DNA of 64,000 nt from Eledone cirrhosa (taxonomy: Eukaryota). Position numbers and translations under genes: made by a program. The notes under the pieces are model-generated. The model made no database searches. It was not told the origin of the DNA and was given only the letters and a program-made list of their open reading frames with translations. The stretch covers positions 165,664,001 through 165,728,000 of the forward strand of contig OZ024741.1 in the NCBI GenBank assembly GCA_964016885.1. Reading direction: 5' to 3'. This document shows positions 20,498 through 58,262 of this stretch, one piece after another (position 1 is the first letter of the stretch; each line of letters begins with the position of its first letter).

Positions 20498-20880
20498 ATA
20501 GTGAAAGAGTGAAGAATAACATGGTCGGCTGTACAAAACGGGTTTATTTACAGTATTAACAATTGTTTCATTAATCAGGTGAGTCTATAGGCCGCTAATC
20601 ACTAGAAATTACGTCACTCAACTTTAATTGCAGTGTGTGTCTCTGATCAAATCATCGGAATACTGAGTATTCCGATGATTTGCGATTAGCGGCCTTTAGA
20701 CTCACCTGATTAATGAAACAATTGTTAATACTGTAAATAAACCCTTTTTTGTACAGCCGACCATGTCATTCTTCACTCTTTCACTATTATTACTCCAAGA
20801 ACCACCTGCATGGGAATTCTCTTAAACTCACTACCGACTAAGGAAACTTCTTGTTGAGTTAAACAACGCCATACATTAAA
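20498..20880. mobile_element. Penelope-like fold-back insert with a hammerhead in each arm
   Basis: Arms 20498-20664 and 20666-20787 (right arm lacks about 46 bp); agtatt-CCGATGA...GAAAC-AATT-GTT-aatact; tail after the right arm. Confidence 0.8.
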
Positions 20881-21029
20881 ACTATCCACAGTACTCACAA
20901 CCTCTAACTGGATTACCTAAAACAATACCTTGTTATCGCACGTGCATGCTGAATTTCAAGCAAAGTCCATATGTTGGGTTATCATATTTTCTGTCCATCT
21001 ATTCAGTTTTGCTCACAAGTCTTTTGTTA

Positions 21030-21230
21030 CCGGTAGAGCATCAGACACTATGCTTCACAGCAGAGAGTTATGGCCCTTTATCATCTCAGCTCAAATGCTG
21101 CTGAGGTTAGCTTTGCCTCTCACCCTTACGGGATCGATAAAATAAAGCACCAGTAATACACTAGGGTCAATTTAATCAACTTTACCTCCCCTTCAAATTG
21201 CTGGCCTTATGCCTAAAGTAGAAATAATTA
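21030..21230 (+). mobile_element. SINE family A copy (longer variant)
   Basis: Family A body plus a gtcaatttaatcaacttt...ccc segment shared with 6480-6510 and 43880-43910. Confidence 0.8.
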
Positions 21231-21446
21231 TTAACCCTCTAGCATTTAAACTTGCCATACCCCGACAGAATTCTCTCACCTCTTTCAGTTCAAACCAGCC
21301 ATAACCGGCTGCTCATACTGACTTTATGGTATTGTTCTCAAAATGAATATTATCAAAATCTCGAAGATTCAATATAATGTGAAATAAAGCCTTTACTGTG
21401 AAAATACAACAGTATATATAGAGTAATGTAAATGCTAAAGGGTTAA
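21231..21446 (+). mobile_element. piggyBac-type MITE (family C, about 210 bp)
   Basis: TTAA|ccctctagcattt...aaatgctaaaggg|TTAA. Further copies at 31258-31466, 39480-39708, 39739-39917, 48739-48948 and 60359-60563. Confidence 0.88.
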
Positions 21447-22334
21447 ATGACACTTGCCCATGATGCCATGCAGTGTTCTTGAAGCTGGGAGCTCATGATG
21501 TAAAACAAACTTGTTAACCATTCAGCCACACCTGCATCCATACATGATAGAGAAGTGAATATGTGAAGGGGAAGATAACGAGAATTAACTATTTTTATTT
21601 AATTTGTCTTTCAAATAATACATTTAACTCCCTTCAAAACATAGTTTTAGTTTGTTTATTGTTGGATTCTAAATGCCAATATTTCTATATTATTTCTTAA
21701 AACCTTATTCAACATTTCTGATTGATAATGTCATATATCAATACAGCTAACAATCAATTGAATACAGAGAGGCTATTTTTAAGATTTTCACAATCAGTGT
21801 ATTTATTTCACCGAAGATGAAACAAGCCTGTCATAAGTTTAATTTCATAATCTGAGCAAATAAAGAATGGCTTTTTGTAATCAAACTACATATGCACAAA
21901 TATATGTATATGAATGCACACACATACACGCAGATACAGGCAGATGAATACATACATATACATACAAATATGTATGTGTGTACATATGCATATATACAAT
22001 CATGCATACAATGCATACATGAACACATTTGTTTCAGCATATACAAACACAGAAATATATATACATACATACATACATATATGTGCATATATATAAATAT
22101 ATATATATACACACACACACACATACATACATATATATATACACACACACACACACACACACATATACATACACATATATGTACACACACACACATATAT
22201 ATATTCACACACACACACACACACATATATACATACACATATATGTACACACACACACACATATATATATATATTCACACACAAACACACATATATATAT
22301 ATACATATGCACTTTCATATGTGAGTGTGTGTGT

Positions 22335-23122
22335 GTGCATGTATGTATACAACTGTATATGTATGTGTGTATGTATATATGCATGTATGTGTACAACCGT
22401 ATATGTATGTGTGTATGTATATATGCATGTATGGGTACAACCATATATGTATGTGTGTATGTATATATGCATGTATGTATACAACCGTATATGTATGTGT
22501 GTATGTATATATGCATGTATGTGTACAACCATATATGTATGTGTGTATGTATATATGCATGTATGTGTACAGCCGTATATGTATGTGTGTATGTATATAT
22601 GCATGTATGTGTACAGCCGTATATGTATGTGTGTATGTATATATGCATGTATGTGTACAACCGTATATGTATGTGTGTATGTATATATGCATGTATGTGT
22701 ACAACCATATATGTATGTGTGTATGTATATATGCATGTATGTGTGTATGTATATATGCATGTATGTGTACAACCATATATATATGTGTGTATGTATATAT
22801 GCATGTATGTGTGTATGTATATATGCATGTATGTATACAACCGTATATGTATGTGTGTATGTATATATGCATGTATGTGTACAGCCGTATATGTATGTGT
22901 GTATGTATATATGCATGTATGTGTACAACCGTATATGTATGTGTGTATGTATATATGCATGTATGTATACAACCGTATATGTATGTGTGTATGTATATAT
23001 GCATGTATGTGTACAACCGTATATGTATGTGTGTATGTATATATGCATGTATGTGTGTATGTATATATGCATGTATGTGTACAACCATATATGTATGTGT
23101 GTATGTATATATGCATGTATGT
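22335..23122. repeat. 44-bp minisatellite
   Basis: Unit gtacaaccgtatatgtatgtgtgtatgtatatatgcatgtatgt, about 17 copies. Confidence 0.95.
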
Positions 23123-55758: not shown

Positions 55759-56009
55759 ATATATTTATATATATATATATATATATATGTAGATATATAT
55801 ATATATTTAGATATATATATATATGTAGATATATATATATATATATTTATATATATATATATATGTAGATTTATATATATATATATATATGTAGATATAT
55901 ATATATATATATATGTAGATATATATATATATTTAGATATATATATATATTTAGATATATATATATATGTAGATATATTTAAATATTTAGATATATATAT
56001 ATATCTATC

Positions 56010-56506
56010 TATCTAAGGCGGGTAAAATTCCCGAGATCCATGGACGAGTTCTCTCCAGCGGTCTCTGTCCCTCATTATCGCTGCCATGTCCTGCGTCTCC
56101 AACAGACCAGTGTCTGTCCTTAGGGCATCAACATACGTTAACCTTGGTCTTCCACTTCTAGTGTGTCCATGTAGGGGCTCCCACAGGAGCACTGAGTGCA
56201 GCTTGAGTGCAGCTTGAGATAGGTGTGGAAGTCGGACCTTCATGAAGACCTGAAAATCCGCCTCTTCATTGCTGTAGTGGAGTCTCTGCTGCTGTATGGG
56301 TCTGAGACTTGGACACTGACCAAGAGACTCACTCAGATGGTGGATGGTTGCTACACGAGAATGCTGAGGATGGCTCTGAACATTAATCAGTAGTCACTGA
56401 GGATGAAAAACGCAGAGCAGTATGGGAGCATCCCAAAAGTCAGCTCAAAAGTGACACAGAGGAGACTGAGGTTAGCTGGACATGCTCACCAACATCCAGA
56501 GTTGAC
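56010..56506. mobile_element. RTE/RTEX-like LINE 3' end with a 5' inversion
   Basis: 56013-56220 (minus) LHSVLLWEP...GRPRLTYVD...* with (TAGA)n tail; 56221-56506 (plus) LLLYGSETWTLT...[16 protein letters not shown] is the immediately upstream coding segment. Confidence 0.85.
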
Positions 56507-56888
56507 ATATATATATATATATATGTAGATATATATATATATATATATTTAGATATATATATATATATATTTAGATATATATATATATATATATTTAGAT
56601 ATATATATATATATATATTTAGATATATATATATATATTTAGATATATATATGTAGATATATATATATATATTTAGATATATATATATATATATATTTAG
56701 ATATATATATATATTTAGATATATATAAATATGTAGATATATATATATGTAGATATATATATATATATGTAGATATATATATATATATATATATATGTAG
56801 ATATATATATATATTTATATATATATATATATATATGTAGATATATATATATATATATATATATAAGTAGATATAAATATATATATAT

Positions 56889-58091
56889 ATACGCAGATGA
56901 CCTAACACTCATAGCTGAATCAATGGCCGAGCTAGAGAAGAAATTCCAAACATGGAAGCACGGCCTAGAATCAAAAGGCCTTAAAATTAACCTGGCTAAG
57001 ACTGAAGTTCTAGTTTGTAAGAAAGAAAATAAGGCGACGGTCCCTTCCAGGAAGTGGCCATGCTCAGTGTGTAGGAAAGGCATAGGTAGAAACTCCATTT
57101 TGTGTCCCGAATGCAAAGTATGGGTGCATAAAAGTTGTAGTGGGATCACAGGTAAGCTAACTAAGAACATAGATTTAACATGTGGCCAGTGCTCTGGTGC
57201 AATAAGTAGCAGCAAGTGCCCAGAAAATACTAGCTCTTTCAACTGCGCAGAGGGTTCTATAGAAATAGTGGACAGCTTCCGTTACCTGGGTGACAAAATC
57301 AGCAGTGGGGGAGGGTGCTCTGAAAGTACAGTAGCTAGAGTCAGAAACGGATGGAAAAAGTTCAGAGAGCTTATACCACTATTAGCCGCTAAAGGGTTCT
57401 CCCTAAAAATGAAAGGCAGGTTGTACGATGCCTGCATATGAACAGCAATGTTGCATGGCAGTGAGACCTGGGCATTGTGTGCAGAGGATATACGCAGACT
57501 AGAGAGAAACGAAGCTTGCATGCTCCGCTGGATGTGTAATAGTAATATACGTGAACAGCAAAGCATAAACGAACTAAGGAAAAAATTAGAAATAAGAGGG
57601 ATCAGATGTTGTTTACTCGAGAGAAGGCTACGTTGGTATGGTCACGTGATGCGCATGAAGGACGATAGCTGTATAACAAAGTGCAGGGCAATAAAGATAG
57701 ACGGTAGCCACGGAATAGGCAGACCCAGAAAAACCTAGGACGAGCTGATAAATTCCGACCTCACACACTTACACCTCACCAAGACAATGTCACTGGACCG
57801 ACACCTTTGGCGGTACTCAGTAATAGAGAAGACCCGCTTTACCTAAATACAAAGTAAAACCTACTACAGTCAGTAGGCATCTCTAACAAAATACACCCCC
57901 GTCCCACCACCCCCACCCCATCCACACCGCCCCTTTCAATGTAAAGTTATGTTGGTGCCACAACATCCAGGCCGAAACAAATGAGATCGTGTAGGTGTCA
58001 CGTCAAAAAATACACAGTTCACGCTGTAATGTGGCCGTGTAGGCAACACGGTAAAAACCTCCCAGCCCCACACTGTAAATGTGGTTGGTGT
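56889..58091 (+). mobile_element. RTE LINE fragment from YADD to the 3' UTR
   Basis: YADDL...WPCSVC...HKSC...LHGSETW...RRLRWYGHV...GRPRKT; two premature stops; bounded by (TA)n. Confidence 0.93.
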
Positions 58092-58097
58092 ATATAT

Positions 58098-58262
58098 ATA
58101 TTGTTATACTTGGGGAGGGTCATATTTGTGTAATATTGCCAGAATTAATAACAGAACACACTCACTGTTTGGAGAAGCGAAAACCAACCAAACAGTGAGT
58201 GTGTTCTGTTATTAATTCTGGCAATATTACACAAATATGACCCTCCCCAAGTATAACAATAT
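58098..58262. mobile_element. Mini fold-back insert of the 54681 family
   Basis: 75-bp arms 58098-58172 and 58188-58262, matching the pseudo-LTR end; no tail. Confidence 0.85.

Follow-up and report, generated by a model that had tools for sequence, protein, structure and literature searches.

The window described here is a stretch of 64,000 nucleotides (nt) of Eledone cirrhosa (assembly GCA_964016885.1, contig OZ024741.1, positions 165,664,001 to 165,728,000, forward strand) and lies in a 3.0-Gb genome. It contains eight short inserts associated with (TA)n microsatellites. At all eight sites two arms of one repeat are joined at their element-5' ends, with the element-3' ends pointing outward. 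One arm typically stops at a fixed position, here called the short site, and the other continues into a tail. The inserts are almost certainly 5'-truncated copies of four families of endonuclease-bearing Penelope-like elements (PLEs), and each of them probably consists of two target-primed cDNAs.

The inserts are lettered A to H. Inserts D, F and G belong to family F, inserts A, E and H to family E, and inserts B and C to one family each. Six of the inserts, B to G, form true palindromes. The arms overlap by ~11-15 nt in insert A and by ~3 nt in insert H, so that neither is a hairpin. A preliminary description of the window had listed all eight as stereotyped hairpin-forming inserts with one arm usually continuing 60-90 nt further; the head-to-head layout stands at every site, but the hairpin does not hold for A and H. 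The features are as follows, with RT for reverse transcriptase and ORF for open reading frame.

2030-2176: insert A, diverged relative of family E that follows the general layout, (TA)n on both sides
2122 to ~2030 (-) and 2126-2176 (+): insert A, tailed arm and short-site arm
20498-20787: insert B, palindrome
20498-20665 (-): insert B, inverted arm, short site merging into (TA)n 20456-20500
20684-20940 (+): insert B, direct arm to 20787, then a tail of ~150 nt
32536-32666: insert C, palindrome, 65-bp arms identical
32536-32600 (-): insert C, inverted arm with its short site merging into (TA)n
32600-32738 (+): insert C, direct arm to 32666, then a 72-nt tail into (TA)n
32601-32652 (+): family C type I hammerhead motif, read by eye, laid out as in Hydra hammerhead ribozymes; stem I AGATTC/GAATCT, core CTGATGA (32607), GAAA, predicted cut after GTA (32645)
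32830-32953: insert D, family F, palindrome 32886-32953
32915 to 32830 (-): insert D, arm and tail; joined to a 29-nt arm (+) ending ...CAAAGTATAACAATAT into (TA)n
40594-40812: insert E, palindrome 40594-40733, 2 mismatches in 70
40594-40663 and 40664-40733: insert E, inverted arm with short site into (TA)n, and direct arm followed by a 79-nt tail
54502-54594 (-): family E short-site arm between two (TA)n tracts, additional to the sites listed before
54740-55075/55423-55758: insert F, palindrome, 336 nt, 99%
54682-55077 (-): insert F, tailed arm, 58-nt tail at 54682-54739
55079-55758 (+): insert F, longer arm with the end of an RT/GIY-YIG ORF, 3' region, short site into (TA)n
55510-55570 (+): family F hammerhead-like motif, read by eye; CTGACGA 55517, stem II GTTGCA/TGCAAC, GAAA 55541
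58098-58262: insert G, family F, two short-site arms of 75 and 91 nt, tail on neither
62547-62638: insert H, family E, tail 62628 to 62547 (-) and an 18-nt short-site arm (+)

Insert B is a palindrome as first described, but its tail reaches 20940, beyond the 20880 given before, and its right flank is without (TA)n. Inserts C and D have one (TA)n tract in common. The ORF remnant of insert F has its stop at ~55270, and its residues 870-909 are 100% identical to the protein of a family F copy elsewhere in the genome (L034; loci fetched from the genome carry L numbers). Tail lengths of 72 nt (C) and 79 nt (E) agree with the 60-90 nt given before, but the tail measures ~58 nt in F and ~160 nt in family B.

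Families, reading frames and genomic occurrence

An ORF with RT and GIY-YIG parts was linked to each family by following copies outward, which bears out the earlier suggestion of several Penelope-like families. In family F, L034 holds an open stretch of 931 aa. L033 starts with an inverted copy that stops at the short site, followed in order by a pseudo-long terminal repeat (pLTR), the tail, an ATG, the ORF, and a 3' pLTR with tail running into (TA)n. The full-length family E copy L163 has a 794 aa ORF, preceded by an inverted arm ending at the short site and by a pLTR whose tail runs into the ORF, and followed by a pLTR with tail into (TA)n. Family C is linked to its ORF in L259 (772 aa) and L261. 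More than 10 of 25 family B loci have broken ORF ends upstream of the pLTR, oriented as it is. A partial tandem of the pLTR together with an adjacent inverted 5'-truncated copy is present in L163 (E), L033 (F), and L261 and L336 (C).

The family F ORF matched Pfam RVT_1 with an E value of 4.5e-4, below the cut-off, and contains YVDD and VY..YIG motifs. The C and E ORFs had no Pfam RT or GIY-YIG match; YRDD and YIG motifs are present. Atlas look-alikes of C (0.95-0.99) fall in RVT_1/GIY-YIG/HTH_animal clusters. On their motifs, families B, C and E appear to be Hydra-type and family F Nematis-type; this placement rests on a comparison of protein motifs and their spacing, not on a tree. The C and E ORFs closely resemble the Hydra rows of Fig. 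S7 in Craig 2021 (PMC8557442), with RWK-like and DKT motifs read as RIRWR and SDKT in C and as RLRWR and SDKT in E. The linker is CNCLNKEAC (CxCx5C) in C, followed by CDLC and CMH, and CNCHLPDKC (CxCx5C) in B (L309), followed by CGLC and CRH. In E, CNLC and CKH are found; the third linker Cys is replaced in L163 and kept in a relative in L165. Family F has the linker CTNRKCIIC (CX4CxxC) and then a nuclease CCHH, CKTRNVVYSIRC...H...H. The spacing between linker and nuclease is short, as in the Nematis rows (Fig. S2) and unlike the Neptune rows of the same paper (Craig 2021, PMC8557442).

The family F ORF (L033:3099-4274, L034) also carries a long Asn-rich insert; such an insert has been described for A. 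vaga Penelopes (PMC3846280). Further PLE ORFs outside the four families were observed at L165:6086-8409, L174:2722-4896, L039, L166 and L227, one of them Neptune-like (Pfam GIY-YIG, 8.7e-7) and several Hydra-type. The genome holds many more (TA)n-associated PLE families.

The layout of the family C hammerhead motif is that of the Hydra ribozymes in file S2 of Craig 2021 (PMC8557442). Its stem I appears in the minimum free energy (MFE) fold (z = -0.12). In the family F motif stem I is weak (z = 0.08), and the MFE folds of both motifs were no better than those of shuffled sequences. A canonical core was seen by eye in C and in some B copies; E has the variant core CTGAGAA. An Rfam scan gave no hammerhead among the best 150 of 218 matches. 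Rfam microRNA (miRNA) matches on inserts C, D and G were below the gathering score and driven by hairpins and microsatellites.

Exact genome matches numbered 13,491 for a 23-mer of the F arm, 20,918 for the family E tail followed by (TA), and 245 for a 29-mer of the B tail end, with no match for the control in each case. The F arm used by itself as a DNA query gave no match, a result without weight, since the search passes over common words. Of the anchors and copies fetched without TA in the query, 29/30 (F anchors), 29/30 (E copies) and 25/30 (B copies) had ends entering (TA)n, against a baseline of 5.6% of the window in (TA)>=5. The (TA)n targeting and the fixed, family-specific outer ends proposed earlier are both supported, and the boundaries recur across the genome in thousands of exact matches.

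The symmetry of an insert ends at the insert edge, and the tail is on one arm only. A fold-back in the assembly would mirror the flanks and both ends, so the inserts are not artefacts of this kind. Independent reads, which the preliminary description had named as a check, gave strand-change joints and exits into (TA)n at the short site at the family level, in raw reads of two other individuals (one run each, with L165 as reference). Reads leaving the family E short site into (TA)n numbered 2509 and 2330; the family E strand-change joint 1574/1575 was crossed by 64 and 68 reads in the two runs, with one start each, and family C gave several strand-change joints.

Two side observations concern the later history of such sites. 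The 3' region of family C (L259, L261, L262) has many (TA)n tracts that draw nested C, E and F insertions, and nesting in (TA)n leads to chains such as 32536-32953 and 54502-55758 in the window. In L323 (C1:34852500-34862000), at 1063-2707, a family F hairpin and its (TA)n recur as five tandem copies of a ~313-nt unit; this array is a satellite born from an insertion scar.

Arm pairing and inner ends

Pairing was scored in 30 tail-anchored loci for each of families C, B and E. For C these were 30 of 40 scored perfect matches; for B and E, as also for the F pattern sample, they were the first 30 listed places of the pattern searches (all on C1, or on C1-C2). From one of the locus sets of the analysis, L007, L028 and L029 were dropped as duplicates or as one and the same locus. 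Two inserts made up of three parts, L135 and L138, have an automated inner value that belongs to an inner fragment, and they were kept in the denominators; the partner of L147 was missed in the pairing and inner-end counts.

An adjacent inverted arm was found in 20/30 C, 16/30 B and 17/30 E loci, 53 in total. In 52 of these 53 pairs the partner of the tailed arm ends at the short site, and in one (L273) it is tailed. Among the F anchors 11/30 were tailed. If arms paired at random, a tailed share of about one third or more is estimated to yield at least ~19 tail/tail pairs. Among the first 100 F places listed, close pairs faced outward in 15 cases and inward in one, and six were tandem. Two further candidates were rejected: L320, taken at first for a tail/tail pair, consists of two separate tail/short-site hairpins, and L321 of two separate inward-facing inserts rather than one.

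The inner ends of the inverted arms are clustered. They lie within 6 nt of one point in 14/20 (C), 7/16 (B) and 11/17 (E) cases, with binomial tails of 3e-9, 3e-7 and 3e-7 against the most favourable geometric null, uncorrected for the post hoc window. Over the three families, 32 of 53 partner 5' ends come to lie 6 nt or less from a point that is 30-32 nt below a TATA-like box. The tailed arms end equally close to this point, the putative transcription start (+1), in 13/30 (C), 2/30 (B) and 9/30 (E) loci. The cluster is 30 nt (C) and 32 nt (B) below CTATAAATACCA, which is the only TATAWAWR in either reference; the background of this word is 36 in 118,544 window positions. Family E has CTATT(C/T)AAATACCA at -31. 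The putative +1 is the A of CCAGATT in C (32601), of CCAGTATT in B and of TCATTTAGTC in E, and the cluster points fall on words resembling the initiator (Inr) consensus. In the window, the hairpin centre of insert C is the putative +1 itself, the inverted arm of insert B has its inner end near it, and the centre of insert E is ~9 nt above it. Of 25 ORF-side C copies, three (two of them independent) also begin within 6 nt of the point, and in L338 and L345 (C) the following tandem unit starts there. Across the C +1 the read depth drops about 6-fold in two raw runs, from 2342 to 367 and from 2413 to 391.

The distance from the cluster to the short site is 165 nt in B and ~60 nt in C and E, and a fixed 60-nt ruler was rejected on the position in B. 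The clusters of C and B fall on the 5' strand of hammerhead helix I, with the core at +6 in each. That of E lies within the hammerhead-like motif, 45 nt below its core CTGAGA, and a stop at the ribozyme edge was rejected on that position. Run-off from ribozyme-cut RNA found little support, with few junctions at the predicted cuts (+44 in C, +114 in B). Given the positions in E and B, a transcription start covers all three families, and neither the ribozyme edge nor the ruler does. The inner-end cluster would thus probably, judged from its sequence context, mark run-off of the cDNA at the transcription start. TATA plus Inr and a transcription start in the pLTR have been reported for other PLEs.

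Several points weigh against this reading. The putative +1 was picked after the clusters were known, and the samples are small. A look for RNA data sets carrying the L078 sequence listed none. The TATA module is common to B, C and E by descent, so that the three are not independent tests. The depth step is confounded by subfamilies that diverge upstream (L147, L176). No clear inner-end cluster was seen in the family F sample. A second group of B inner ends at +100 to +127 (6/16) and a few C inner ends at +19 to +22 are unexplained by run-off. The D. virilis Penelope promoter is TATA-less. The pairing rule has its own exceptions, with two short-site arms in insert G and L196 and two tailed arms in L273 and possibly L319 (long), and deletions at palindrome centres after insertion could give some of the arm asymmetry described below.

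The remaining points would suggest a different origin of the cluster, namely a stall of the RT where the RNA is folded into hammerhead helix I, or splicing at a 3' site, in place of the RNA 5' end. The C and B clusters lie on the helix I 5' strand, YAG follows pyrimidines at all three clusters, and an intron of D. virilis Penelope ends at helix I. The E cluster inside its hammerhead-like motif, the scarcity of junctions at the predicted cut sites and the TATA-like box at the canonical distance in all three families argue the other way. For splicing in particular, no junction filler matched the upstream pLTR as exon 1; only long copies continuing past the reference matched. A stall or splice site retains a modest chance of being the correct explanation, well short of that given to run-off at the start of transcription.

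Priming sites and proposed mechanism

The tail of families C, E and F is the sequence that follows the 5' pLTR, and it runs into the ORF in long copies (L261, L163, L033); for C, read-through from tail into ORF had 127 matches. Such read-through was not seen for B. Since it continues into the ORF, the tail is not intrinsically an RNA 3' end. The preliminary description had proposed that both ends of a break in (TA)n prime reverse transcription, one at the RNA 3' end and one at an internal site. Two different starts on the two arms are indeed what the short-site partners of the tailed arms indicate, but the tail end as RNA 3' end is not borne out as written. Both starts overlap (TA)n by 2-5 nt: CCTAT and CGTTAT in E, ACAATAT and CGCTAT in F, AACGTA plus several short-site positions in C, and CACTA at the B short site.

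Under the proposed mechanism, the GIY-YIG nuclease would cut both strands of (TA)n. One target 3' end would prime at the tail end and the other at the short site upstream of it, on the element RNA. Each cDNA would then stop early or run off the RNA 5' end, and host end-joining could unite the two, with filler or short overlaps left at the junction. cDNAs started on the 3' pLTR would give the long arms with ORF. The TATA box would be lost from the cDNA and restored by the partial tandem of the pLTR; with the TATA box outside the RNA, active copies would need an upstream partial tandem, a need that has been argued for the pLTR of Penelope. The run-off cDNAs may be likened to retroviral strong-stop DNA. 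That priming from two target ends occurs at two fixed starts, with cDNAs often running off the predicted RNA 5' end and joined head to head, is favoured here with some reserve. The full scheme, in which one ribonucleoprotein uses two programmed starts 60-330 nt below a TATA-driven start and both cDNAs run off before end-joining, is put forward tentatively, at slightly less than an even chance.

A second route may operate beside it. The usual hairpin template could be a short read-through RNA from the 3' pLTR (+1, hammerhead, tail, (UA)n), making the inserts a by-product resembling short interspersed elements. Base-pairing with (UA)n close to the 3' end of that RNA would then make up the tail start, leaving the short site as the sole internal one. 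This is the model of the preliminary description, and it is compatible with two-ended priming on the element RNA. It draws on a C sub-lineage (166 candidates, 30 loci examined) with an extra G before (TA)n (GTACG). This G was absent from the first 100 listed ORF-side C read-through matches, and on read-through RNA made from tailed copies the tail end may therefore serve as a start close to the 3' end. Long tailed copies also retain the TATA box (L152, L158-162). The C tail query itself contained the extra G and so selected for that sub-lineage. In the C sample fetched with an upstream query the G occurred in 1/15 tail ends, most joining at AACGTA+TA, which fits an internal start; a slip-back of 4 nt could also add the G. 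The E and F tail ends equal the ORF-side read-through letter for letter, and internal starts dominate in Frangieh 2024 (PMC11167929). As the usual template, the short RNA is considered unlikely.

Still less probable is self-priming or fold-back: a single cDNA, or an antisense template, would be copied back on itself, with TA microhomology to the target setting the end of the second arm. For A. vaga, Arkhipova 2013, which also describes TATA plus Inr in a pLTR, interprets head-to-head junctions with small palindromes in this way, as self-priming on an antisense template. Some centres here lie on small palindromes (insert E), and the arms of one insert sometimes have minority letters in common (L265, L279, L139). 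A comparison of arm variants, bearing on one or two RNA templates, gave 15 differences in 541 columns for E and 23 in 742 for C, mostly misalignment near the centres of three loci. Against fold-back, the untailed, inverted arm reaches further 5' in 28 of the 53 pairs, the tailed arm in 9, with 16 ties. In several B and E inserts, as in A and H, the tailed arm is the tail alone and offers no overlap to copy. This speaks against a fold-back origin of the second arm, barring later deletion of the centres. Both strands were extended in vitro in Frangieh 2024 (PMC11167929).

The palindromic shape and TA flanks superficially resemble miniature inverted-repeat transposable elements (MITEs) of the Tc1/mariner type. 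An origin as such DNA transposons with terminal inverted repeats, or as fold-back assembly artefacts, can be practically dismissed in view of the single tail, the asymmetric ends, the variable centre, the RT and GIY-YIG ORFs, the thousands of exact boundary matches and the raw-read joints in two other individuals; the absence of transposase-type structure foreseen in the preliminary description is thus upheld.

Other repeats of the window stand apart from the four PLE families. A 226-nt palindrome (41403-41626) within 41260-41626 belongs to a different abundant repeat that ends at (TA)n. Inverted pairs of other short interspersed repeats lie at 6021-6891 and 51291-51401, the latter joined through (ATG)n/(CAT)n tails. 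At 56015-57850 there are fragments resembling two 3' ends of long interspersed elements, apparently of an AP-endonuclease, RTE-like kind, with TA-rich arrays between them; related ORF pieces occur in L172 and L175. An array of ~44-nt AC/TG-rich units at 21887-23120 is microsatellite-derived, and its mir-297 matches are below threshold.

Relation to known systems

Twin priming of L1, which Ostertag and Kazazian reportedly put forward in 2001, is said to let the second target end prime internally and so to give a head-to-head inversion with outward 3' ends. There the second site is said to be variable and the two pieces barely to overlap. Unlike in L1, the second site is fixed here, 58-165 nt above the first, so that identical bases are often copied into both arms.

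Partial tandems, an adjacent inverted 5'-truncated copy, a one-end tail of 30-40 bp and a (TA)n bias are described in Craig 2021 (PMC8557442), which also lists cephalopod Hydra and Naiad families, including Hydra-1_Obim. The microsatellite-targeting guild of the preliminary description is accordingly not new, as published Hydra and Naiad PLEs already include (TA)n-targeting elements that have tails and inverted copies; the four families are new, but their PLE clades and their architecture are known. With Hydra-clade PLEs (PMC8557442) families B, C and E have in common RW[RK], DKT, the CxCx5C linker, CxxC/CxH around E and N, a C-terminal GIY-YIG, (TA)n targets, a hammerhead-like motif in the pLTR and the inverted 5'-truncated copy. 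They differ from them in tail length (~72-160 nt, compared with 30-40), in a longer element with ~1 kb or more of 3' region, and in copy numbers that reach tens of thousands of ends; by eye, the hammerhead listed for Hydra-1_Obim does not resemble the B, C and E motifs (PMC8557442). Family F is similar to Nematis-type elements in the CX4CxxC linker close to the nuclease cysteine and in YIGET-R-R-H (PMC8557442). It differs from them in its strong (TA)n preference and the lack of a clear inner-end cluster in its sample, its placement being by motif spacing.

Frangieh 2024 (PMC11167929) reports in vitro reactions of the anole PAc/Poseidon element, in which both strands of an AT-rich target are cut and extended and two internal RT starts bound the tail; truncation of the RNA 5' end shortens the product, and ribozyme cleavage is dispensable. 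The Poseidon starts are without homology to the cut DNA, in contrast to the TA overlap of 2-5 nt found here. In its available portions that paper leaves the inverted copy, the rule of one tail per insert and the inner-end positions unexplained.

Non-LTR retrozymes and dispersed minimal hammerheads are comparable, with hammerheads of PLE pLTRs and some close opposite-strand pairs (PMC4209133; bioRxiv 10.64898/2026.07.22.740005); Cervera 2014 derives such pairs from truncated PLEs. The inserts are dispersed inverted pairs and not tandem arrays as in the retrozymes. On the C reference (L165:1830-1907), both raw reads and contigs do have joints that jump back by 77-78 nt, with 13-14 read starts, which implies tandem units that hold the whole C hammerhead motif and resemble non-LTR retrozymes. 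No tandem 77-nt C unit was present among the fetched loci.

The origin of the inverted pLTR and of the one-sided tail of PLEs is named as an open question in Craig 2021 (PMC8557442), and the later steps of the reaction are left unvalidated in the portions of Frangieh 2024 (PMC11167929) consulted here. Searches of an open-licence library turned up neither the pairing rule nor the TATA-linked centres in print. From the one-tail rule, the longer untailed arm and the TATA-linked inner ends follow direct predictions, which the existing in vitro assay and sequencing of RNA 5' ends could address. In this genome such ends, tens of thousands in number, are open to mis-annotation as MITEs or miRNA precursors. 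By extrapolation from 13/30 sampled among the 20,918 tail ends, family E would account for ~9,000 palindromes, and long (TA)n palindromes may act as fragile sites or as sources of double-stranded RNA. If the proposed mechanism is true, the short hairpins would be a genome-scale record of the PLE reaction, PLE transcription starts could be read off DNA alone at their centres, no antisense template would be required for inverted pLTRs, and short pLTR RNAs would seed thousands of palindromes.

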